The translations under genes were made by a program, and so were the position numbers. The notes beneath the pieces were generated by a model. That model was not told the origin of the DNA, searched no databases, and saw only the letters and a list, made by a program, of their open reading frames with translations. From an uncultured bacterium (GTDB lineage: Bacteria > Patescibacteriota > Doudnabacteria > UBA920), in contig CAVVMJ010000003.1 in NCBI GenBank assembly GCA_963749445.1, positions 128,715 through 192,714 of the forward strand: a DNA stretch of 64,000 nt, written 5' to 3'. Below, one piece after another: positions 1 through 60,545 of the stretch. The first letter of the stretch is position 1. Every line of letters starts with the position of its first letter.

Positions 1-1831
1 CAGTTTATAAATTTCCCGTTCCAGCTGATTAATGTCTATTTCCGCCTCGCCGGAAAGCCGGTTTAAAAATTTTGCGTCCAGCTTAATGCCACTTAACTCC
101 ATATTCGCCAAAACTTCCACCAGCGGCATTTCTATGTCGTCAAAAATTTTGCGCAGGCCTTCCTTTGAAAGCGCAGGCTCAAATAATTCCTTAAGCCGCA
201 AAGTCATATCCACATCTTCGCAGCAATACCAGCTAACTTTGGCCGGCTCAACTTTGTCCATCGTGGTTTGGGTTTTGCCTTTGCCGATTAAGTCTTCAAT
301 GGGCTGCATTTGGTAGCCCAGCTCGTTAAACGCCAAAGTATCCAAACTGTGCTGGCGGGTTCCGGCATTTAAAAGATACGAGGCGATCATGGTGTCAAAA
401 TAGATAGTGCTTAGTGCTAAGTGATTAGTGCTTAGCACTTGTAAATCATACTTAATGTTATGGCCGATTTTGGCCCACTTTAATTTATTTGATAGTGGGC
501 CATCCGTCGAAGCTTCAGCGAAGGCGGATCCACTCCCACCGATTATCTTTTTTAACTCATCTGACGCCAAAACCAAATCCGCGGGCACATAATAAGCCTC
601 GCCACGCTTTACGCATAAGCCAACGCCGACCAATTTGGCATCTATAATATCCAGGCTCGTGGTTTCCGTGTCAACCGTTAATTCTTTGGCGGATGATAAA
701 ATTTTTAGGAGCTTTTTCCAATTTTGCCGCCGTGTCTATCAGTTCATAATCCTGCTTGCCAATACCACCTCCCCCCGCTTCGCGGGGTACTCCTCCTATA
801 TTAGGAGGAGAGACTCCGTGGTTCTCCGGGGATAACTGCGGCTCGCCCGACGAAGCCTTGGCGTAGTCGGGAGCATTCCCCTCCTGGGACAGGAGGGGTG
901 TCCCGACTTGTCGGGACGGGGTGGTAGTATCATTCCCATTCTTCGGCAATTTATTAAGCAAACTCCTAAACTCCAATTCCTGAAACAGCTTTACTACAAC
1001 CTGCAAATGCGCCGCGTCTAAATCGTACTTGGGAATATCAATGTCCAAAGCCACATTGCAATCTATCACCGAAAGTTGATACGACATCCGCGCCTCTTTT
1101 CCTGGTCAATCAATAACTGCACATCCTCGGCTTTATCCTATTGCCTGTTGCCTCTTTCCCTATTGCCTGATACAAACCATCCAGCGATTTAAATTCTTTG
1201 ATTAATTCCTCCGCGGTTTTTTCCCCAATGCCTTTGACGCCCGGAATGTTATCGGACGGGTCGCCGCGTAAAGATTTATAATCCACCATCTGGTCGGGAT
1301 TCAACCCATAGCGCGCACGCACGGCCTTGGCATCATAAACCACAGTGTCGGTAATGCCTTTGCGCATGGTGTAAACTTTTATCACGTGATTAACCAACTG
1401 CAGAGTATCCAGATCGCCCGTCACAATAATAACTTCGGCCTCGGGATTTTTTTTATGAGATTCATTGCCAAAGTGCCCAAACAATCGTCCGCCTCAAACC
1501 CCTGCTTTTCAAAAATCGGAATGTTCAAAGCCCGCACCACTTCCTTGACGCGCGGAATTTGGTCGTAAAGTTCCTGGTCGGCCTTAACGCGCGTGGCTTT
1601 GTATTCTTTATACTGCACATGCCTAAAGGTAGGGCCGGCCAAATCAAAAGTGCAGGCAATATGCGTGGGCTTAATGTCCGCAATGGCTTTAAGCAGAATT
1701 AAACTAAAACCGTAAACCGCATTGGTCTGCTCCCCGCTTTTGGTGTTTAAAACCGGAATAGCATGGTAGCCGCGGTGGATTAACGCGTTGCCGTCTATTA
1801 ACATGTAGCGCTGGCCTGTGGATTTAACCAT
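1..1831 (-). CDS. polA: DNA polymerase I (5'-3' exonuclease plus start of 3'-5' exonuclease domain); the gene continues past the window start. It has about 4 apparent frameshifts, those sited at homopolymers near 705 and 1450, and an in-frame GC-rich repeat insertion at 764-920.
   Basis: Translations contain MLIDGNALIHRGYHA, the H3TH motif GDPSDNIPGVKGIGEKTA, and DTETTSLD (Exo I) in a third frame that runs to position 1. Frame breaks fall at T5/T8 runs. Confidence 0.8.
764..920. repeat. Family-A GC-rich double-hairpin palindromic element (copy A1), inserted in-frame in polA.
   Basis: ccccgcttcgcgggg + cctcctatattaggagg + gagactccgtgg, followed by the hairpins cccctcctgggacaggagggg and gtcccgacttgtcgggac. 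A near-identical core is present at 46937-47000. Confidence 0.75.
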
Positions 1832-2012
1832 ATCTTCTAAAATTGTTAGTTTTGTGAGTTGATGGGAATCTTCGAGATGGTATTATCGTTGGCTGATATT
1901 CATCGGCAGTCTGATAATTACCATTAGCGCGACTATCGGCAAGAAGATTCCCATCAAGCCAGTTTTTGGAGGCAATGGACTTATTGGTGTTATTATTATA
2001 ATCTACATTTGC

Positions 2013-4150
2013 ATGCTTGACCACTTAAAAAAGCTCACACTTCCCCCAAAATTCCGCACAAAAACCGCCAAACGCTGGTTTGTAGCCGGGGTTGTCTTGA
2101 TTGGGCTGATGGTTGTTTGGGGAATAGTTTCCGCGCGGCTCGCTAACCGGTTACAACTCGCCTACCAGGCGCAAAGCTCGCCCGTGTGGTACGACAGAAA
2201 CGGCCAATTGTTGGATATTAAACCCAACCCACAGGGCAATTACGACCAATTTTTACCCAAAGTACCGCCGCGCCTGGGCAGCCTGCTATTAAAAAAAGAA
2301 GACCGATTTTTTTACTGGCATTTTGGCATTAACCCTTTTAGCTTAACGCGCGATTTTTTTCGTGGGTAATTTCCGGCAGGCGCAGCGGCTCGTCCACCAT
2401 AACCCAGCAGCTGGTAAAAATTTTGCTGGGCAATGCCAATGACCGTTCGGTCGGTAATAAACTGCGTGAATTTGTCTACGCTGAAAGTTTGGAATACCGT
2501 GCCCCCAAACAGCAAATCTTGCTAATGTACTTAAACAGCGCCTATTTTGGCCCAAACAGCCAAGGCATCAAAGATGCCAGCCTCTACTACTTTGGCGTGC
2601 CGCCGGAAAACTTAAACGACGCGCAAATTCTGTCAATTCTGGCCGCGCTTAACAGCCCGAGCCTTACCTCGCCCACAAATTCTCCCAATTTGGCCCGAGC
2701 CAAAATTCTCGCTAAACATTTTGGCCTTAACATCGCCGCCGCCGACTGGCAAAACATCAGCCTTGCCAAAACCCACAACTACCGCCAAAATCCCGAAAGC
2801 TTTGAACTGGGCAGTTTAAACGTGCCCTGCCAAAATTCCTGCCGGCTGACTTTGGACAGCGACTTAACCAAAAACATCCGCGAAATTTTGCGCCGCAACC
2901 TAAATTCCGCCAGCCTGCAAACCGCAAGCAACGGCGCCGTGGTGGTAATTAAGCTGCCGGAAAACGAAATCCTAAGTTTGGTCGGCTCGCCCGAGCCTGA
3001 ATCCAAAGGCCAGGGGCTGCAGCTTAATATGGCCATCAAACCCCGCGCCATTGGCTCTACGGCCAAGCCGTTTATTTATTTAAACGCGTTTGAGCAGGGC
3101 GCGCGGCCTTACAGTTTGGTGGATGATACGGAAAGGAAGTACCAGCTGGGCACGGGTTTTGATTTTTTCCCGCAAAATTTTGACGGCCAGTTCCGCGGCC
3201 TGGTAACTTTGCATCAGGCGCTGGATAATAGTTTAAACATCCCGAGCGTCCAGGTTTTAAGTTTTGTGGGTTTGGATAATTTTTACGGCTTCCTCAGCAA
3301 AGATTTGCAGTTTAAACCCCAGCAGCCGCTGGAAAATTATGAATTAAGCATTGCCCTGGGGGGCTTGGAAATGGATCCGCTGACTTTATCCCACTACTTT
3401 ACAATTTTCCCGCAAAACGGCTGGCTAAAACCTTTGACTTTGTACCAATCCGGTTTTAATTCTACACCCTACTACCAAACACCCATGGAGCAAATGTCCA
3501 TCAACCCCAAACAAATCGGCAAGGAGGCCGATGTGGAATTGGTTAATAAAATTTTGAACGATAGAGAAACCGGCGTGGACCAGTTTGGCATTAAAAGCAA
3601 TTTGAATTTGCCGTTTACCAATTACGCGGTCAAAACCGGAACCAGCCGCGATTATCACGACAGCTGGACCGTGGGCTACACGCCGGATTTTTTGGTGGGG
3701 GTTTGGATTGGCAACTCAGATAACCGCGCCATGAAACAAATTACCGGCCTGGCCGGCGCCGCCCGCGTCTGGCACGAGGTGATGAACCTAATGTACAACA
3801 CCGCCTACAACAAAAACACGCAATTTAATTTTAGCAAAGTCCAATTTATCCAAAGCGGCGACACCTTAGACTTTGCTTTGGCCGGAGACGACTACAACAC
3901 CGCGCGGCAGATAATGTTAAAACCGCAGCTAATTCTAAACCCCCACGACAACGACCAACTATTATTCCAACCCGGCGCCAGCATCCCCCTCTCCGCCTCA
4001 ACTGATGTCGATTGGACAATCAACGGCCAATTTTTTGCCCACGCTCAAAAAACCTTTTACCCCATCACCAAATCCGGAAGCCTAACTATAAAAGCCACAT
4101 CCACCGACGGAAAAACCCAGCAAGTTACTATTAATATAAACAAAGAATAA
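2013..4150 (+). CDS. Class A penicillin-binding protein (transglycosylase + transpeptidase + C-terminal domain, PbpC-like). Apparent frameshift at a T7 run near 2355.
   Basis: N-terminal TM; EDRFFYWHFGINP and GSSTITQQLVK (transglycosylase motifs, the latter in a shifted frame); the transpeptidase motifs STAKP, SLN and KTGT. Confidence 0.8.
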
Positions 4151-4151
4151 T

Positions 4152-4805
4152 ATGGATACTCTAAATATTTCCTTGCATGGAGCTAAGGAAAAAGAAGTTT
4201 TTGAATTTTTTAACCAAATCGTAAAAGAAACAACGATTGTATTTTTAAAAGATGTCTCTGGCGGGGACAGGATACCCCTTAGAATTCAAATGATTATAAC
4301 TTTTAGCTTAATAGACATTCTTGCAAGTTATTGGTTTGAATATTTAGAAAAGACAGGGACTCAACAAGAAAGATTTTGTTTATGGTATAAAACTTTCTGT
4401 AAAACCTATAGGAATAAAAAATATTTAAAAAATCAACAATGGAATATTCTCAGTAGTTCTCGTTTATATCAACTGAGAAACTCATTAGTCCATTTCTTTG
4501 GACTGTCTTCTAAAATAGAAAACATATACCTATCGCTAGTGCCAAATGATTTACCAGATAATGAAAAAAGTGATTTAGAAAAAAGATTGAACAACCATAA
4601 ATACAAAACCATAGTCATAAAGCCAAACGAATTTCACGAACTAGTCCGAGAAGGCGGCATACTTATGTTGGAGGACTGGCTAGAAAATGTAAGATTGGCA
4701 AACTCTGGAGACACTAATAAAAAAAATGCGCATATCAAGGGAATAAACAAAATATGGGAAAAAATACGATCTGAAGGTGCCTCAATAATTTTAAAAAAGA
4801 AATAA
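4152..4805 (+). CDS. AT-rich hypothetical protein with a HEPN-like Rx4H motif (possible Abi/toxin-like RNase).
   Basis: LYQLRNSLVHFFG contains R-N-x3-H. GC is about 30% against about 47% for the flanks. The start abuts the upstream PBP stop (TAA-T-ATG). Confidence 0.4.
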   Translation: MDTLNISLHGAKEKEVFEFFNQIVKETTIVFLKDVSGGDRIPLRIQMIITFSLIDILASYWFEYLEKTGTQQERFCLWYKTFCKTYRNKKYLKNQQWNILSSSRLYQLRNSLVHFFGLSSKIENIYLSLVPNDLPDNEKSDLEKRLNNHKYKTIVIKPNEFHELVREGGILMLEDWLENVRLANSGDTNKKNAHIKGINKIWEKIRSEGASIILKKK

Positions 4806-19083: not shown

Positions 19084-19172
19084 CATTGCGAGTGCAGCCG
19101 AAGCAATCTTATCCAAGCTCAAGAAAAAGATTACCGCGTCGGCCAGTTAAAGCCCTGGCCTCCTCGCAATGA
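19084..19172. repeat. Family-B palindromic element (copy B3).
   Basis: attgcgagtgcagccgaagcaatc ... ggcctcctcgcaatg; the first motif is identical to the one in copy B2. Confidence 0.6.
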
Positions 19173-27802: not shown

Positions 27803-28855
27803 ATGATCACTTCCAACAAAGACAAAACTGATATTTCCCCTCTGGATGCCGCTCTAGCGGAAGAAGAGGACAAAGGACTGGACCAGAATTTACGGCCGGC
27901 GGTTTTGGAGGACTATGTCGGGCAGGAATCGGTTAAGGAAAATTTGCGGGTGATAACGGGCGCGGCCAAACAGCGCGGCGAAATTTTGGAGCATCTGCTG
28001 TTTTACGGGCCGCCGGGTTTGGGCAAAACCACTCTGGCTTTTATTGTCGCGCGGCAAATGGGCGTCAACATCCGCGTCACCTCGGGTCCAGCCATTGAGC
28101 GCGCCGGCGATTTGGCTAGCCTTTTGACCAACCTAAACCAGGGCGATGTTTTGTTTATCGATGAAATTCATCGGTTAAACAAGGTCGTGGAAGAAGTTTT
28201 ATATCCGGCCATGGAAGATTTTGCCCTGGACATAATTTTGGGCAAAGGCCCGGGCGCGCGCTCCATTAGGATGGACCTTCCCAAATTCACGCTGATAGGC
28301 GCCACAACCCGCATTGGCTTGATATCCAGCCCCCTGCGCGACCGTTTTGGCGCCACTTTTCGCCTGGAGTATTACACGCCCGAGGAATTGGAAAAAATCA
28401 TTGCCCGCTCGGCTAAAATCTTAAAAGCCAACATCAACAAAGAAGCCGCAGCCGTTTTAGGCCGGCGGGCGCGATTTACTCCCCGCATCGCCAACCGGAT
28501 TTTAAAGCGCGTGCGCGATTTTGCGCAGGTTAACGGCCATGCTACAATAAACAAAGACGTGGTGGCTAAAGCTTTACAGTTACTGGAAATTGACGAACTG
28601 GGACTGGACAAAAATGATCGGCGGATTTTGGAAGCTTTGATTACCAAATTTGGCGGCAAACCGGTGGGGCTAAGCACACTGGCCGCGGCCACCGGGGAAG
28701 AAGAAGACACTATTACCGACGTGCATGAGCCATTTTTAATCCGCCTGGGACTGCTGTCCAAAACTCCCAAAGGCCGGCAGGCGACCGAAACAGCATATGC
28801 ACACTTGGGAATAAACCTCCCGATGAGCCAGCAAAAAACCCTACTTCAGTTATAA
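27803..28855 (+). CDS. ruvB: Holliday junction branch migration ATPase RuvB.
   Basis: DYVGQE, Walker [15 protein letters not shown], Walker B/sensor-I region [10 protein letters not shown]. Confidence 0.9.
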
Positions 28856-28963
28856 GTTGTAGGTTATAGAAGCCAGTTTGGTCATAAGTTAATAGTTATA
28901 AGGCAGCCTTACAACTTACTGCCCACGACTATACTGGTTTCCATAACTTAAAACCTCCTACCC
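28838..28963. repeat. Family-F/G palindromic element (copy F1), overlapping the last codons of ruvB.
   Basis: ccctacttcagttataagttgtaggttatag...; related to copies at 29160, 48580 and 51541. Confidence 0.55.
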
Positions 28964-29176
28964 ATGAACCTAAACGACCCCACCAACCTACTCGTAGCCG
29001 GCATCTACTATTTAGGCGCCGGAGTCTTAAGCCTGTTTTCCATTTTTGGCGTTTACCTGCTTATGCGCTACGGCAAATCCACCTTGCTCTCCTTTACCGT
29101 GAGCGTTTTTTACATTTTTATTTTTCTCTCGATCCTTGGCAGCTCCTACCAATCTTTACAAACCCTACTTCAGTAG
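28964..29176 (+). CDS. Small two-TM membrane protein (hypothetical). Its 3' end lies in repeat F2.
   Basis: Hydrophobic 70-aa ORF bracketed by the F1 and F2 repeats. Confidence 0.35.
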   Translation: MNLNDPTNLLVAGIYYLGAGVLSLFSIFGVYLLMRYGKSTLLSFTVSVFYIFIFLSILGSSYQSLQTLLQ

Positions 29177-29292
29177 TAAGTTATAGGGTATGGCAGCCAG
29201 TACGGTTATATGTAGTTGGTTATCAGTGGCTTATAACCTACAACCTATTACGCCACCGGCCGCTACAACCAATAACCTATTACCCTACTAAA
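29160..29292. repeat. Family-F/G palindromic element (copy F2).
   Basis: ccctacttcagtagtaagttatagggtatggcagccagtacgg...ccaccggccgctacaacc...ataacctattac; shares blocks with G1. Confidence 0.6.
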
Positions 29293-36174: not shown

Positions 36175-36268
36175 GCAATTAACAAGATTGACATGAATGA
36201 ACAAGATTGACAAGATTGCCAACCCAAATTCATGTCAATCATTTAAATCATTTAAATCTTGTTCAATC
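36175..36268. repeat. Family-C AT-rich palindromic element with repeated TTGACA motifs (copy C1).
   Basis: caagattgacatgaatga acaagattgacaagattgccaac ... attcatgtcaatcatttaaatcatttaaatcttg. Confidence 0.65.
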
Positions 36269-38315: not shown

Positions 38316-38385
38316 ATTCCAAGTTTTAAAAACACCCGAGAGGGTATTTTTTGTAGCGTGCCGATTTATCGGCTGGGCGATGGTT

Positions 38386-39189: not shown

Positions 39190-39456
39190 ATGGGAGAACA
39201 GATAAACACGGATGTAGCGTGCCCATTTATGGGCGGACGATGGATGTGTTTAGTGTAGTTAGCCGATTTATCGGCTGTTATTTGTGTCAAGTCATCCCGA
39301 CAAAATTTGAAAAGTTAAATATAAAAGCCAGAAATAAGCCTAAATACATTATATCATAAGTGGAGCCAAATTGTCAATATGTGATTATTATGGTATATTT
39401 CCCCGTTAAAACAAAAATCCTAAAACGGCACTTTTTGTTTCAACAAGGAGGAGTTC

Positions 39457-40581: not shown

Positions 40582-41847
40582 CTAAATTGCTAGAGAAAGT
40601 ATAATCCAAAATACCATGGCCAAGTCGTTTTTAAAGTAGGGGTTGTCTACTTGGCCTTGGACTAATACTGCGATGAGGAAGAGGGCGATGGATAAGGCAA
40701 TTGTGCGGTTAAAATCTCCAACTACCCCGTCTCGCTTCGCAATCCACCCCTCCTTGGCAGGAGGGGAAGCTCCGCGAAGACCGCGGTAAAGGTAGAGTCC
40801 GATTAGCCCGATTAAACTTATTAGCCCGATTAGTCCGGTTTCCACCCAGAGGTCTAGGAAAATGTTGTGCGGGAAGTTGTGGGTGTCGGTGAGGCCGGGG
40901 TCGGTGTTAAGGGTTGTCCACTGGCGTGAAAAGCCGGTTAAGCCGAGTCCAAAAATCGGCGATTCTTTAACGCCTTTTATGCCGGTATCCCAAAGGGAAA
41001 AGCGGGAGACCGCGGACTTCTCACCGTAAAAAGGCAGGACAAAGCGCCAGCGGAGGTTGGGGATGCAAACGATAACGATAACCATAATGATAACGCCGGC
41101 AAAAATTATTTTGCGGATTTTTTTGTCCGCGGCAAATATCAGGTAAACCAAAACCGCGGCGCCAAGGCCGGCCCAGCCGGCGCGGGAGAGCGATAATAGT
41201 AATCCGGTAGCGCCGATTATCCAAGCAAACATCTTTATCCAATTTTTCCACCCCTCCCTAACCCTCCCCATCAAGGGGAGGGAAAAAGAAGAAAAAATAT
41301 CCGGAATCAAGAAGGCTAAAAGTGGGGCGCACCAGAGGGCGTAAAAGTTCGGGTGGATGAAGAAGCTTAAGGCGCGCTTGGGCTCGTTGCTGTTGCCCCA
41401 CCAAGCTGTCGGCAATCCGATTAATGTAAAGTACTGGAGAATTGCGTAGAGGCCGGTGACTGCGAGGAGAAAGTAAGTAGTTAGTAGTAAGTAGTTAGTA
41501 GCCCGCGGGTATTGCTTGATAATAAATCGGCCGATAAAAAATATAGAAACCGGCTGCAAAAATAACACAATAAACTGGCCGAGTTTGGCGCGGTCAAAGC
41601 CATGGACAAACAAGGAAATTATCCCGGACAGGAAAAACAGACCAACCAAAACCAGGATTTTTTTATCCAAACCCATCAGCGATTGCCAAAATTCCCGTAG
41701 TTGATGTTTGGCCAAAATCCACCCTAAAAAAATCACCCACACTAAAACTACCCACACCATTAAAACGTCTGGGGGAAAGCCAAAAACGTTAAATTTAATA
41801 ACGTAGGTCGGCGTTAGCAGTAAAGTTAGGGCAAGAAGATAAGGCAT
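40582..41847 (-). CDS. O-antigen ligase-like (Wzy_C/WaaL family) polytopic membrane protein. Carries in-frame GC-rich hairpin inserts.
   Basis: LLLSLSRAGWAGLGAAVLV (Wzy_C motif). Hairpins cccctccttggcaggagggg (40773-40815) and ccctccccatcaaggggaggg (41250-41285) fall within loops. Confidence 0.6.
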   Translation of the reverse strand: MPYLLALTLLLTPTYVIKFNVFGFPPDVLMVWVVLVWVIFLGWILAKHQLREFWQSLMGLDKKILVLVGLFFLSGIISLFVHGFDRAKLGQFIVLFLQPVSIFFIGRFIIKQYPRATNYLLLTTYFLLAVTGLYAILQYFTLIGLPTAWWGNSNEPKRALSFFIHPNFYALWCAPLLAFLIPDIFSSFSLPLMGRVREGWKNWIKMFAWIIGATGLLLSLSRAGWAGLGAAVLVYLIFAADKKIRKIIFAGVIIMVIVIVCIPNLRWRFVLPFYGEKSAVSRFSLWDTGIKGVKESPIFGLGLTGFSRQWTTLNTDPGLTDTHNFPHNIFLDLWVETGLIGLISLIGLIGLYLYRGLRGASPPAKEGWIAKRDGVVGDFNRTIALSIALFLIAVLVQGQVDNPYFKNDLAMVFWIILSLAI

Positions 41848-41857
41848 AGTTATTGAG

Positions 41858-41950
41858 CAAGATTTAAAAGATTTAAATGATTGACATGATTAAGAGTTGG
41901 CAATCTTGTCAATTTTGTCATTCATGTCAATCTTGTCAATCAATTTAGGG
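41858..41950. repeat. Family-C palindromic element (copy C2, inverted relative to C1), filling the WaaL-like gene's upstream spacer.
   Basis: Reverse complement reads acaagattgacatgaatgacaaaattgacaagattgccaac...catgtcaatcatttaaatcttttaaatcttg. Confidence 0.65.
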
Positions 41951-46844: not shown

Positions 46845-46936
46845 AAGGTTTATATACGGAGTTTCCTTCCCTCTTTGAGGGAAGGTGGATCGCGCAGCGA
46901 GACAGAAGGGTTGGAGTGTTATCAACCCAATCTCCA

Positions 46937-47000
46937 ACCACCTCCCCCCGCTTCGCGGGGTACTCCTCCTTGAAAAGGAGGAGAGACTCCGCGGTTTTGT
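46937..47000. repeat. Family-A element (copy A2), intergenic.
   Basis: cacctccccccgcttcgcggggtactcctccttgaaaaggaggagagactccgcggtttt. Confidence 0.7.
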
Positions 47001-47723: not shown

Positions 47724-47764
47724 AGATATTGGATGTGCTGATGGTTATTGATGTGTTTGGTATA

Positions 47765-47818
47765 GAGGCACGCCGTGGCGTGCCTGATTGTCGGCATGCC
47801 AAGGCATGCCGCTACAGT
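47765..47818. repeat. Family-I tandem-hairpin element (copy I1).
   Basis: ggcacgccgtggcgtgcc + ggcatgccaaggcatgcc; an inverted copy lies at 60480-60545. Confidence 0.6.
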
Positions 47819-48571: not shown

Positions 48572-48579
48572 GGAGTGTA

Positions 48580-48690
48580 TTTGGTTATAGGGTGTGGCGG
48601 CCGGTACAGTATTAGGGTTTGGGTATTAAGTCACTTACACCCAAAGACCTACAACTACACTGGCCGCTATACCTTATAACCTATTACAGA
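48580..48690. repeat. Family-F/G palindromic element (copy G1).
   Basis: ggttatagggtgtggcggccggtacagtattagggtttgggtattaagtcacttaca...ctacactggccgctatacc; about 80% identity to the inverted copy G2. Confidence 0.65.
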
Positions 48691-50993: not shown

Positions 50994-51539
50994 TTAGAGT
51001 TTTTTATAGTATAGCAACAAACTGCCATGTTTGTTGAGCTTTTTTACGGAGATAAGTTTGAATTTTGTATTTAGATCAATATCGCTCGCAAACAAATCTA
51101 TCCCTCCCCCAAAAACGATTGGCTCAATGGTTAAATAAAGTTCATTAAGCAAATTGTTTTGCAAACAATAAGTATAGGTTTGCGCTCCGCCGAGGATGGC
51201 GACGGTTTTGTATTTTAGTTCGCGGATGAGTTTTTTTATATCTGATTTTTGCGGGTTGACATATAAAAGGTTTGTTTGCAACCTCTCTGCCCTTCGGGCA
51301 TCTTCCCTCGCCAGGGGAGAAGGCTCCGCGGTTTTGCTAAGAACTATGCAGTTGCGCTTGGATAGCGGCTTTATTGCCGTCTTGTAAGTGTTGTTGCCAA
51401 CGATTATGCAGTCGCATTTGTCCAGCAGCGCGCGCATAAAGAGCTTGTCTTCTTTGCTGGTCCAATCACTCGGATGGTTTGGGCCTTTGGCGATTTTGCC
51501 GTCCAGGGTTATGGCGGCAATGGCGATGTATTTGGACAT
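50994..51539 (-). CDS. RibD C-terminal/DHFR-like reductase domain protein, carrying an in-frame Family-A-like insert.
   Basis: IAIAAITLDGKIAKGP. The insert encodes EPSPLAREDARRAER (51292-51338). Confidence 0.5.
   Translation of the reverse strand: MSKYIAIAAITLDGKIAKGPNHPSDWTSKEDKLFMRALLDKCDCIIVGNNTYKTAIKPLSKRNCIVLSKTAEPSPLAREDARRAERLQTNLLYVNPQKSDIKKLIRELKYKTVAILGGAQTYTYCLQNNLLNELYLTIEPIVFGGGIDLFASDIDLNTKFKLISVKKLNKHGSLLLYYKKL
51292..51338. repeat. Family-A-like element (copy A3) inside a CDS.
   Basis: cctctctgcccttcgggcatcttccctcgccaggggagaaggctccgcggtttt; parallels the A1/A2 architecture. Confidence 0.5.
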
Positions 51540-51540
51540 G

Positions 51541-51650
51541 GTAATTGGTTATTGGGTTTGGCGGCCAGTATGGGTGTAGGTTTTTGGTTGTAAGTGACTT
51601 AATACCAAAACCTTAAGACCGTACAGGCCGCCACACCTTATACCCTAAGA
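51541..51650. repeat. Family-F/G element (copy G2, inverted).
   Basis: Reverse complement reads tataaggtgtggcggcctgtacggtcttaaggttttggtattaagtcacttaca... Confidence 0.65.
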
Positions 51651-52370
51651 CTTTTTAAAGATTTTTAATAGAGGGTAATATAAGTCTTTCTTTGGTTCAA
51701 TCACCAGCTTGCGATGGGTGCTGTGATTGGTAAACTTGATAAATTTCGCGCCGCGCAAAACCATCATCGGGGTTTTTTCGTTCCCCTCCCCCATCAGCAA
51801 GACAGCCATGTTGGATATGCTGTCCACGATGTTGCTTTGGGTGTATTTTAACTTGCGGCCGAAAATATCTTTTTTGCCGCGGTAGTCAAATAATGGCTCT
51901 AATCCGAAAAACCCTATGGATATCCCCTGCGTCCCCCACCGAAGCGGTGTGGTGTGGCTGTCGGTAATTGCCACCGCAAGTTTTTTTATTTTAAACTTCT
52001 TTTTTAAATATTTACAAATTTTTTTGGCCGCCTGGGTGGAATTCTTTGGCCAAAGGATGTCGTAGCCATTGCCGTTGCTCTCGTCAATCCCGGCTGAAGG
52101 AATTAGGGTGTAATCTTTAATTGTCAAAACTATATCCAATCCGTTAAGCACCCTTTTTGGCAGCGAATAATCCGCCTCTTGTTTTATAAGTTTTAGTTTT
52201 TCCCGATGATCATCTAATTTAACACAACGTCCTTGATGTATGGCCAAAATTTTGGACGTAACAAACAAAACGTCACCTTCTTTTAAGTGCGGCAGATGTT
52301 TGTCCATCAACCCAAAAATATCATCCTTGGGCGGTAAAAACTCCCGGGTTTTTATTGGCATAAATTGCAT
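51645..52370 (-). CDS. CofE-like (F420-0:gamma-glutamyl ligase family) protein.
   Basis: The SAGIDESNGNG motif and its length. Confidence 0.45.
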   Translation of the reverse strand: MQFMPIKTREFLPPKDDIFGLMDKHLPHLKEGDVLFVTSKILAIHQGRCVKLDDHREKLKLIKQEADYSLPKRVLNGLDIVLTIKDYTLIPSAGIDESNGNGYDILWPKNSTQAAKKICKYLKKKFKIKKLAVAITDSHTTPLRWGTQGISIGFFGLEPLFDYRGKKDIFGRKLKYTQSNIVDSISNMAVLLMGEGNEKTPMMVLRGAKFIKFTNHSTHRKLVIEPKKDLYYPLLKIFKKS

Positions 52371-52432: not shown

Positions 52433-52507
52433 GGGCGCATAGCTCAGCGGTAGAGCAATCGTCTTATACACGATCGGCCCTAGGTTCGAATCCTAGTGCG
52501 CCCACCA
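52433..52507 (+). tRNA. tRNA with anticodon UAU (Ile, AUA-decoding), with encoded CCA.
   Basis: Cloverleaf folded by hand: acceptor gggcgca/tgcgccc, D arm gctc-agcggta-gagc, anticodon arm atcgt-cTTATac-acgat, T arm ctagg-ttcgaat-cctag. A terminator hairpin follows at 52511-52540. Confidence 0.8.
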
Positions 52508-57029: not shown

Positions 57030-57118
57030 GAAATTGCGAGGAGCCCCGACTGCATCGGAGGGGCGACGTGGCAATCCCTTAATCAGTGGGATTGCTTCGG
57101 CTGCACTCGCAATTTCAC
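57030..57118. repeat. Family-B palindromic element (copy B2) upstream of rpsA.
   Basis: gaaattgcgaggag...gcaatccc...gggattgcttcggctgcactcgcaatttcac. Confidence 0.7.
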
Positions 57119-60479: not shown

Positions 60480-60545
60480 TTCTTGTAGTGGCATGCCGGG
60501 GCATGCTGTTTTCTGTCCAGGCACGCCACGGCGTGCCTCTACGTG
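60480..60545. repeat. Family-I tandem-hairpin element (copy I2).
   Basis: ggcatgccggggcatgc...ggcacgccacggcgtgcc. Confidence 0.6.

Follow-up and report, generated by a model that had tools for sequence, protein, structure and literature searches.

Rickettsia palindromic elements (RPEs) are palindromic repeats of about 100 to 160 bp that are dispersed in a small genome (Ogata et al. 2000, via PMC10969869), and that lie in frame within unrelated housekeeping genes, where they add peptide segments at tolerant positions (PMC10969869). Here we describe a repeat with similar behavior in a 64-kb stretch of DNA from an uncultured member of the Doudnabacteria (Patescibacteriota; contig CAVVMJ010000003.1, positions 128,715 to 192,714), which we refer to in its entirety as the window. 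The repeat is a block of GC-rich hairpins, arranged as two mutually inverted modules, that is located in the interdomain linker of DNA polymerase I (PolI), the product of polA. As with RPEs, the block is a palindromic repeat with a stable structure (162 nt, five hairpins, z = -6), and members of its family are found as in-frame insertions that are compatible with the fold of the encoded protein (the polA linker, the Wzy_C and RibD_C genes, and loci L040 and L115) and whose translation is predicted. In neither case has a transposase been identified in the host genome. The first-pass annotation of the window had already likened the block to RPEs, and our findings agree with this for a GC-rich palindrome that is both dispersed and inserted in frame in protein-coding genes. 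This likeness is one of behavior and not of sequence comparison, and the host phylum differs. Moreover, the family that includes the block is shared across phyla, is mostly intergenic outside Patescibacteria, and is built from modules consisting of an arm plus two hairpins, unlike RPEs. Because the hosts belong to unrelated phyla, membership in the RPEs is unlikely and we treat the block as an analog. To our knowledge, RPEs have no counterpart to the association with DUF559 nuclease genes described below.

Two other classes of repeats resemble parts of this system. MITEs, or miniature inverted-repeat transposable elements, represent, like the present family, short and non-coding sequences with terminal inverted repeats and stable folds that occur between and within genes, and they share their termini with gene-carrying parent elements (PMC10969869) in the same way that the modules described here also form the ends of cassettes carrying a DUF559 gene. 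However, the putative parent in the present case encodes a Vsr-like PD-(D/E)XK nuclease rather than any known transposase, a target-site duplication was not observed, and the end modules of the polA element are inside-out relative to those of the cassette. Repetitive extragenic palindromic (REP) sequences and REPINs (REP doublets forming hairpins) likewise consist of hairpin units that pair in inverted orientation to yield larger hairpins and that cluster in mosaics (PMC3116915, PMC2817692, PMC3733652). In the systems formed by REPINs and RAYTs (REP-associated tyrosine transposases), as in the present family, inverted copies of the repeat flank the gene for an associated enzyme and vertical persistence is long-term. 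In contrast to REPs, the modules begin with ACCACC(C/T)CC and carry neither a GTAG nor a CGTC tag, and the associated gene is DUF559 rather than an HUH Y1 (IS200/IS605-like) transposase. Furthermore, DUF559 cassettes can be multi-copy, unlike REPIN-RAYT systems (L109 and L114 are from one genome), and although REPs are defined as extragenic, copies of this family in Patescibacteria are found inside open reading frames (ORFs).

The genes for free-standing Vsr-like homing endonucleases, such as I-Bth0305I, are also comparable in that they, like DUF559 genes, are small and encode nucleases belonging to one fold group (PMC3424549). DUF559 genes resemble them further in occupying a defined position between module arms and in occurring inside other genes (L011, L016, and L156). 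They differ in having no intron or intein context and in that their putative "target" is itself a dispersed repeat. In literature of incomplete coverage, we found no description of such palindromic or MITE-like repeats in Patescibacteria or the Candidate Phyla Radiation (CPR), and the conserved 12-mers of the family led only to unrelated papers. A review of MITEs makes no mention of Bacteroidetes, endonucleases, or Patescibacteria (PMC10969869). The literature on DUF559 that we found holds no link between this family and repeats, the nearest report being that predicted programmed inversion targets are enriched for DUF559 genes along with Eco57I-type and N6 methylase genes (PMC9881135). The first-pass annotation had remarked that the phenomenon was not obviously described for this kind of small-genome bacterium. 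The family itself is not limited to such bacteria, being widespread in Bacteroidota.

A two-module element in the PolI linker

Read on the polA strand, the block begins with ACCACCCC (position 925) and ends with GGAGGTGGT (position 764). The first-pass annotation had correctly recognized a block of GC-rich hairpins in frame within polA but placed its limits at 764 and 920. All four of the hairpins that it named are present, to which we add a fifth (Table 1). A closing stem formed by ACCACCCC and GGGGAGGTGGT encloses the five hairpins. Each module is built from an arm with the sequence ACCACC(C/T)CC, a hairpin that varies in sequence and length, and a conserved pyrimidine/purine hairpin that takes one of two forms, CCCCTCC..GGAGGGG in type B and CTCCTCC..GGAGGAG in type A. 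Within polA, a module of type B faces an inverted one of type A and the arms close the structure, such that the two form one long hairpin unit. The arms and the inverted hairpin modules together represent terminal inverted repeats on a short (<300 bp) element. The RNA fold is very stable (-90.3 kcal/mol versus -65 ± 4 in shuffled sequences, z = -5.99), with 0 of 200 shuffles folding as well as the polA block. The corresponding DNA fold has a z value of -6.2.

The element begins on a codon boundary, and the polA frame is the sole open frame among the six that cross the block, each of the other five being closed by a stop. One stop-free frame joins the upstream sequence ...EFRSLLNKLPK, the block, and the downstream sequence IGKQDYELIDT. 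In-frame reading of the block yields TTPSRQVGTPLLSQEGNAPDYAKASSGEPQLSPENHGVSPPNIGGVPREAGGGG, and the peptide stretch encoded across the insert runs TTPSRQVG...GGVPREAGGGGIGK. In the rebuilt PolI protein, the Pfam domain 5_3_exonuc extends to residue 274 and DNA_pol_A_exo1 starts at residue 363. The insert, which corresponds approximately to residues 304 to 357, therefore occupies the linker between the two exonuclease domains, in agreement with the location originally given. A MAFFT alignment of 120 PolI homologs, the nearest of which have no more than 75% identity and include proteins named Candidatus Doudnabacteria or Patescibacteria, reveals that the segment from ...KLPK to IGKQDY... is hypervariable in both length and sequence. 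Because this linker is hypervariable, the insert is presumably tolerated at this position, where it would be translated as a flexible linker rich in proline, glycine, and serine.

The host gene is represented on the minus strand of positions 1 to 1831 by the N-terminal two-thirds of PolI, which is spread over three ORFs as a result of single-base errors in homopolymer runs. The three frameshifts are near positions 1470, 1095, and 720, and none is within the block. For example, a run of eight A nucleotides in the window must be read as nine to restore ...LIKKNPEAEVIIVTGD... in the protein. An adjacent gene for a penicillin-binding protein (PBP) is likewise broken by homopolymer indels at positions 2369 to 2423. 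Because a syntenic contig obtained from a different sample (L002) has unbroken versions of both genes, these breaks are treated as assembly errors and not as evidence of pseudogenes. The window assembly appears to be error-prone at homopolymers, and ORF-based gene calls there need care.

The first-pass annotation had asked whether the PolI segment is lineage-specific, and we find that it is not confined to this genome. At the DNA level, the polA genes of L002, L004, and L005 carry the element at the identical codon (ACC ACC CCG), and several close homologs encode peptides such as TTPS...TPP...GG...SPP..GGVP...GGGG, and other PolI orthologs have short or different linkers. Because at least three related Doudnabacteria keep the element at the same codon, the insertion is old. 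It took place before these genomes diverged, in an ancestor of the clade. Across the window polA gene and these three orthologs, no differences occur in the arms, in hairpins 2 and 3, or in the GTACCC junction. The stems of hairpin 1 vary with compensation among the four genes (CCGAC/GTCGG, CGC/GCG, CCCC/GGGG, and TGC/GCA), and the center of the element measures between 18 and about 66 nt. Of the positions that define the family, 89% are invariant in the four genes, with a mean pairwise identity of 93%, versus 59% and 47% invariant positions in the flanking DNA that codes for conserved domains. The constraint on the bases of the element therefore exceeds what the peptide would call for.

The core of the polA block also recurs in an intergenic region, as was noted originally, and this region is the spacer between yebC and ruvC. 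Nucleotides 764 to 823 and 46937 to 46996 are 92% identical over 60 nt, with mismatches only in the loop of hairpin 3 and at one further base, and two sub-patterns of 21 to 24 nt each match only these two sites in the window (0.00 expected from shuffles). The PolI segment that is shared with relatives has clear nucleotide similarity to the intergenic copy, and the refuting outcome named at first reading, a shared segment lacking such similarity, therefore does not apply. The remainder of the intergenic element includes the hairpins GGTTGGAG..CTCCAACC and CCTTCCCTC..GAGGGAAGG, the latter of which (46865 to 46885) is like that of module B. The order of the modules is cassette-like, with A followed by B, and the whole spacer adopts a single closed multi-hairpin fold (z = -6.1). 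A short-read contig assembled independently (L001) matches this region at 100% identity and breaks off within the repeat, as is usual for assemblies at repeats. Degenerate copies in two genes, as previously proposed, do exist, but their coordinates have been revised (Table 1). The copy in the Wzy_C gene is antisense and in frame, and encodes ...GASPPAKEGWIAKRDGVVG....

In another Doudnabacteria genome (L089), a full element occupies the yebC-ruvC site, and the RibD_C-like gene contains the hairpin seen in its window counterpart. These copies are therefore old as well. Hairpin 4 is the same in both window copies yet differs in the polA orthologs, and this pattern suggests that sequences may have been exchanged between copies inside the genome.

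Two further features bear on PolI. A second in-frame insert in polA (499 to 543, minus strand) resides in the 3'-5' exonuclease domain, has weak, partly palindromic arms, and encodes GGSGSAFAEASTDGP. This insert is absent from all 44 of the closest PolI homologs, and two homologs have similar peptides (SSFAEATED and SSSAKATED) elsewhere in PolI, suggestive of one more small family of repeats. Separately, TGTAGCGTGCCGATTTATCGGC is present in three copies in the window (38352 to 38373, 39213 to 39234, and 39254 to 39275) and forms a GTAG-tagged hairpin resembling classical REPs. Its reverse complement encodes ADKSARY. Because ADKSADY- and VVSPFMG-type peptides are found in the PolI linkers of other Doudnabacteria homologs, this linker seems to be a preferred site for repeats of more than one family.

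Table 1. Locations of the polA element, its parts, and related features. Positions are those of the window unless a locus is named.
Feature	Position	Strand	Remarks
Complete two-module element (B-A)	764-925	-	162 nt = 54 codons; PolI linker
5' arm, ACCACCCC	918-925	-	Pairs with 3' arm, closing the whole structure (minimum free energy and centroid structures)
Hairpin 1, GTCCCGAC AA GTCGGGAC	900-917	-	Variable hairpin of module B; window letters gtcccgac..gtcgggac
Hairpin 2, CCCCTCC-loop-GGAGGGG	878-898	-	Conserved pyrimidine/purine hairpin of module B
Variable center	811-877	-	Includes fifth hairpin, 841-874; length varies among orthologs
Module A	764-823	-	Hairpin 3, junction GTACCC, hairpin 4, 3' arm
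Hairpin 3, CTCCTCCT-loop-AGGAGGAG	790-810	-	Within module A; window letters ctcctcct..aggaggag
Hairpin 4, CCCCGC..GCGGGG	773-787	-	Within module A; named in the first-pass annotation as ccccgcttcgcgggg
3' arm, GGGGGGAGGTGGT	764-776	-	End of module A
polA (DNA polymerase I)	1-1831	-	5' two-thirds within window; gene leaves window at position 1
Module A, second copy	46937-46996	-	yebC-ruvC spacer, ~90 nt upstream of ruvC
Rest of intergenic element	46855-46936	-	Two more hairpins
Degenerate module B	40727-40790	+	Core hairpin 40747-40766; in Wzy_C (O-antigen-ligase-like) gene
Solitary hairpin, CCCTCCCC..GGGGAGGG	41262-41282		Same Wzy_C gene; family membership uncertain
Degenerate module A	51280-51335 (approx.)	-	Inside RibD_C/DHFR-like gene; encodes ...AEPSPLAREDARRAERLQ...
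DUF559 cassettes in restriction-modification genes	L011 ~1100-2250; L016 ~1200-4340; L156 ~820-1500		

Module recurrence across phyla and at DUF559 genes

To define the distribution of the modules, one genome per species was scanned with the pattern TCTCCTCCT-N3-8-AGGAGGAGTACCC, which includes 22 fixed bases and for which we estimate about 0.4 chance matches (596 Gb, both strands, equal base frequencies). At least 116 loci matched. Among the matches listed, the majority are from Bacteroidota, including cultured Bacteroides, Parabacteroides, Salegentibacter, and Flavipsychrobacter, whereas others are from Doudnabacteria, Woesebacteria, Saccharibacteria, and unclassified Patescibacteria, along with single contigs labeled Cyanobium, Candidatus Kapaibacterium, and Coprobacillus. 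The pattern is present in 11 viral contigs as well. In nearly every listed match, a hairpin that varies in length and sequence comes after the pattern and is succeeded by GGGGGAGGTGGT, for which the scan did not search, and many have module B (ACCACCCC-hairpin-CCCCTCC..GGAGGGG) ahead of it. The polA element is the standard B-A form of this cross-phylum family, which is also found in independent assemblies from other samples and in cultured isolates, among them Bacteroides stercorirosoris DSM 26884 and Parabacteroides sp. PM6-13.

Among the 122 matches listed, 104 (~85%) are outside long ORFs, and orientation relative to neighboring genes is even (21/20/19/13). The even orientation and the location mostly outside ORFs argue for a dispersed repeat and against a cis-regulator, and a cis-regulatory RNA was set aside for its lack of orientation bias. 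Among the copies within ORFs are an in-frame sense copy in an unassigned 306-aa ORF from Patescibacteria (L040) and an in-frame antisense copy in a PGA_cap gene from Saccharibacteria (L115). No Rfam 15 match at gathering score fell on the element in the whole window, 16 module loci, or 13 DUF559 loci, and a search in E-value mode of window positions 700 to 1000 returned no relevant family, with the best overlapping sub-threshold match at E = 0.59. A blastn comparison of the Bacteroides-type module with PLSDB plasmids gave no match.

Eight pattern-scan loci among the matches listed (in the range L006 to L121) each include one DUF559 gene, which in seven of the eight is no more than 150 nt from a module. 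The product of the flanked gene matches Pfam DUF559 (PF04480) with E ~1e-32 (3e-32), and is not a Y1 transposase. As an independent test, 80 metagenome loci were picked by DUF559 protein similarity alone. Module motifs are present within 350 nt of the gene in 78 of these loci, usually on both sides, and in the remaining two variant modules are visible by eye. Motifs number 11.3 per kb in the DNA up to 150 nt from the DUF559 gene versus 0.35 per kb beyond 500 nt. The gene-proximal arm is predominantly GGTGGT upstream (47 versus 7) and ACCACC downstream (56 versus 6). Outward from the gene, both ends carry ACCACC(C/T)CC, an optional variable hairpin, and a CCCCTCC or CTCCTCC hairpin, and these cassette ends match modules B and A of polA. 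The arm ACCACCCC also opens the end modules that adjoin DUF559 genes. The modules are the inverted terminal repeats of small (~120-aa) genes for DUF559 Vsr-like PD-(D/E)XK nucleases.

The variable hairpin covaries among family members, with counts at one pair of 9 for U-A, 7 for C-G, and 4 for G-C, and its covariation score was reached by 0 of 500 shuffles. At the variable pair, the cells that do not form a base pair are T x C, and the asymmetry of G-U versus A-C points to no functional strand.

Most DUF559 cassettes have arms that face the gene. However, L109 and L114, which are paralogous cassettes from one genome with conserved non-coding parts, have the gene at the center of an arms-outward B-A pair. 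In these two Bacteroidota loci, the DUF559 gene holds the position equivalent to the variable center of the polA element. In L007 and L075, the gene has a complete gene-less pair on either side. Units of the form A-gene-B (or A-gene-A) are located in frame in L011, L016, and L156 within restriction-modification genes, whose products include a Type ISP C-terminal specificity domain and, as judged by eye, Eco57I/N6-methylase-like proteins. Truncated gene remnants beside module ends in L153 and a stop-interrupted DUF559 gene in L007 show decay toward gene-less forms. Homologs of DUF559 are very numerous (7,991 of the 8,000 scored candidates at E <= 1e-10), and many are on contigs shorter than 2 kb, which fits the expectation for repeated DNA. 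The grouping of DUF559 with Vsr and the homing endonuclease I-Bth0305I (PMC3424549) and the reported enrichment among inversion targets (PMC9881135) fit the inverted repeats and host genes seen around DUF559. As a separate observation, cassettes inside restriction-modification genes parallel the latter study, in which both gene classes are enriched among the predicted targets.

Origin of the polA element

The explanation that we favor, with a probability of roughly 0.6, is that the block is an old, ORF-less, two-module copy of the MITE or REPIN kind, which belongs to a DUF559-mobilized family, persists as a tolerated and translated linker, and behaves like an RPE. By this mechanism, the DUF559 nuclease would recognize or nick the module structure and could mobilize its own cassette as well as gene-less module pairs in trans, in a scheme analogous to that of MITEs with a parent element or of REPINs with a RAYT. 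The polA copy would then be a non-autonomous derivative. Gene conversion between copies, or continued recognition by the nuclease, may keep the bases of the modules constant. We see a substantial chance that the pairing of DUF559 with the modules represents a new mobile-element class. More tentative, and in our view somewhat doubtful as a whole, is the broader proposal that the modules and the ~120-aa nuclease form an undescribed cross-phylum class of this kind, a nuclease-driven counterpart of REPIN-RAYT and MITE-transposon systems, whose gene-less pairs have spread through Bacteroidota, Patescibacteria, and other phyla and, in the tiny genomes of the CPR, persist chiefly inside polA and other essential genes, as insertions that are translated in frame.

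Several observations weigh against mobilization by DUF559. No DUF559 was found in the six-frame ORFs of the window and of ten Patescibacteria loci (~120 kb), where tblastn and a purpose-built DUF559 hidden Markov model gave nothing better than E = 0.4, and no named Patescibacteria are among the best 120 DUF559 homologs from a profile search. The modules in polA have their arms outward, whereas those flanking DUF559 genes have their arms inward. Because the facing of the modules is reversed, the polA form is not derivable by a simple internal deletion of a cassette. No direct repeat indicative of a target-site duplication was visible by eye at the putative boundaries of the polA, L004, and L005 copies. 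DUF559 is not a known transposase, and its link to the modules is by association only. The family is also low-copy in the window, where a relaxed hairpin-and-arm scan over the 64 kb revealed two copies that are clear and about three that have decayed. The copies in this genome look old and few, and may be fossils. Finally, the strong conservation of bases could instead reflect a host function.

This last point underlies the main rival, wherein the element is not selfish mobile DNA but a structured RNA or DNA signal selected by the host, such as an mRNA stabilizer, an interdomain translation pause, or a protein-binding site. Such a role would be consistent with the very stable closed fold, with the covarying hairpins, with the greater conservation of family-defining bases than of flanking domain-coding DNA in the four orthologs, and with the persistence across species of orthologous copies that occupy polA, the region upstream of ruvC, and the RibD_C gene. 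Three hairpins with GGAGG/CCUCC stems, which resemble Shine-Dalgarno and anti-Shine-Dalgarno sequences, can also be seen. We nevertheless judge a host signal to be unlikely, since the 122 matches listed exhibit no orientation bias relative to neighboring genes, copies are read both in sense (polA and L040) and in antisense (the Wzy_C gene and the PGA_cap gene of L115), and members of the family are found in gene contexts that are unrelated to one another and as arrays surrounding nuclease genes. Also counting against it are the lack of any Rfam match at gathering score and of any overlapping match at E < 0.5. The general view is that Bacteroidota do not rely on Shine-Dalgarno pairing, which further disfavors this role. 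A slightly less probable scenario is that the modules and DUF559 are separate players, with the modules spreading or persisting by other means (another transposase, or replication slippage and template switching at palindromes) and the DUF559 genes inserting, in the manner of homing endonuclease genes, between the two arms of existing modules. The DUF559 gene is indeed nearly always placed precisely between two arms, one GGTGGT and the other ACCACC, its clade includes a homing endonuclease (PMC3424549), gene-less A-spacer-B sites (L051, L023, and the yebC-ruvC copy in the window) could represent "empty targets", and in the Patescibacteria loci modules are present where no DUF559 gene was found. 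Speaking against such independence, the arrangement is not fixed, given that L109 and L114 have the gene central in an arms-outward pair. Furthermore, A-gene-B units are located in restriction-modification genes with no other modules near (L011 and L156), and no alternative mobilizing gene was seen.

Two simpler accounts have very little support from the data. The notion that the block is an excised intervening sequence, such as an intron or intein, or else an assembly artifact, draws on its closed, stem-bounded structure, which could look like an excisable unit, and on the indel errors that the assembly does have. This is highly improbable for an insert of exactly 54 codons that is open in the host frame only, that has no match to an intron family in Rfam (neither group I nor group II), that is far too small for an intein and encodes a low-complexity peptide without intein motifs, and that recurs in independent assemblies from other samples and in cultured isolates. 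Even less credible is an ordinary, lineage-specific low-complexity linker in which the palindromes and the second copy arose by chance or composition. Although the PolI linker is hypervariable among the 120 homologs, zero matches are expected in shuffles, the fold has a z value of -6, and the same 40 or more bases are present in at least 116 loci from other phyla. The shuffle expectation and the cross-phylum recurrence in the pattern scan refute this explanation.

If the block is a tolerated copy of a mobilized repeat, as we favor, then the phenomenon known from Rickettsia, wherein selfish palindromes become peptide inserts in housekeeping proteins, would extend to Patescibacteria. Their genomes are very compact with little intergenic room, and unexplained low-complexity protein inserts are common, as the PolI alignment illustrates. 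DUF559, a very large family of unknown function, would gain a proposed role as the enzyme partner of a dispersed hairpin repeat. On a practical level, the modules break short-read assemblies, create spurious small ORFs, and inflate the apparent divergence of protein linkers, and their near-invariant bases across phyla provide a simple sequence marker for tracing the family.

Other repeats and genes in the window

Additional repeats of other types are present in the window. Two 67-nt AT-rich inverted repeats (36201 to 36267 and 41852 to 41918) are 90% complementary, include AATCATTTAAATCATTT motifs, and bracket a 5.6-kb segment that includes the Wzy_C gene with its degenerate module. This segment could be invertible or mobile, or its repeats could be shared promoter regions. 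A separate family of imperfect palindromes of about 110 nt, GGTTATAGGGTGTGGCGGCC...GGCCGCTATACCCTATAACC, has copies or partial copies at 28836 to 28902, 29173 to 29283, 48577 to 48687, and 51541 to 51651, of which at least those at 48577 and 51541 are directly upstream of gene starts.

A perfect 24-nt inverted match between 47763 to 47786 and 60518 to 60541 contains the hairpin AGGCACGCC-GTG-GCGTGCCT, and a related hairpin, CGGCATGCC..GGCATGCCG, adjoins the first of these copies at 47792 to 47811. Another perfect 24-nt inverted pair is located at 19085 to 19108 and 57090 to 57113. The only tRNA gene in the window is that for tRNA-Ile with the anticodon TAT (52433 to 52507).

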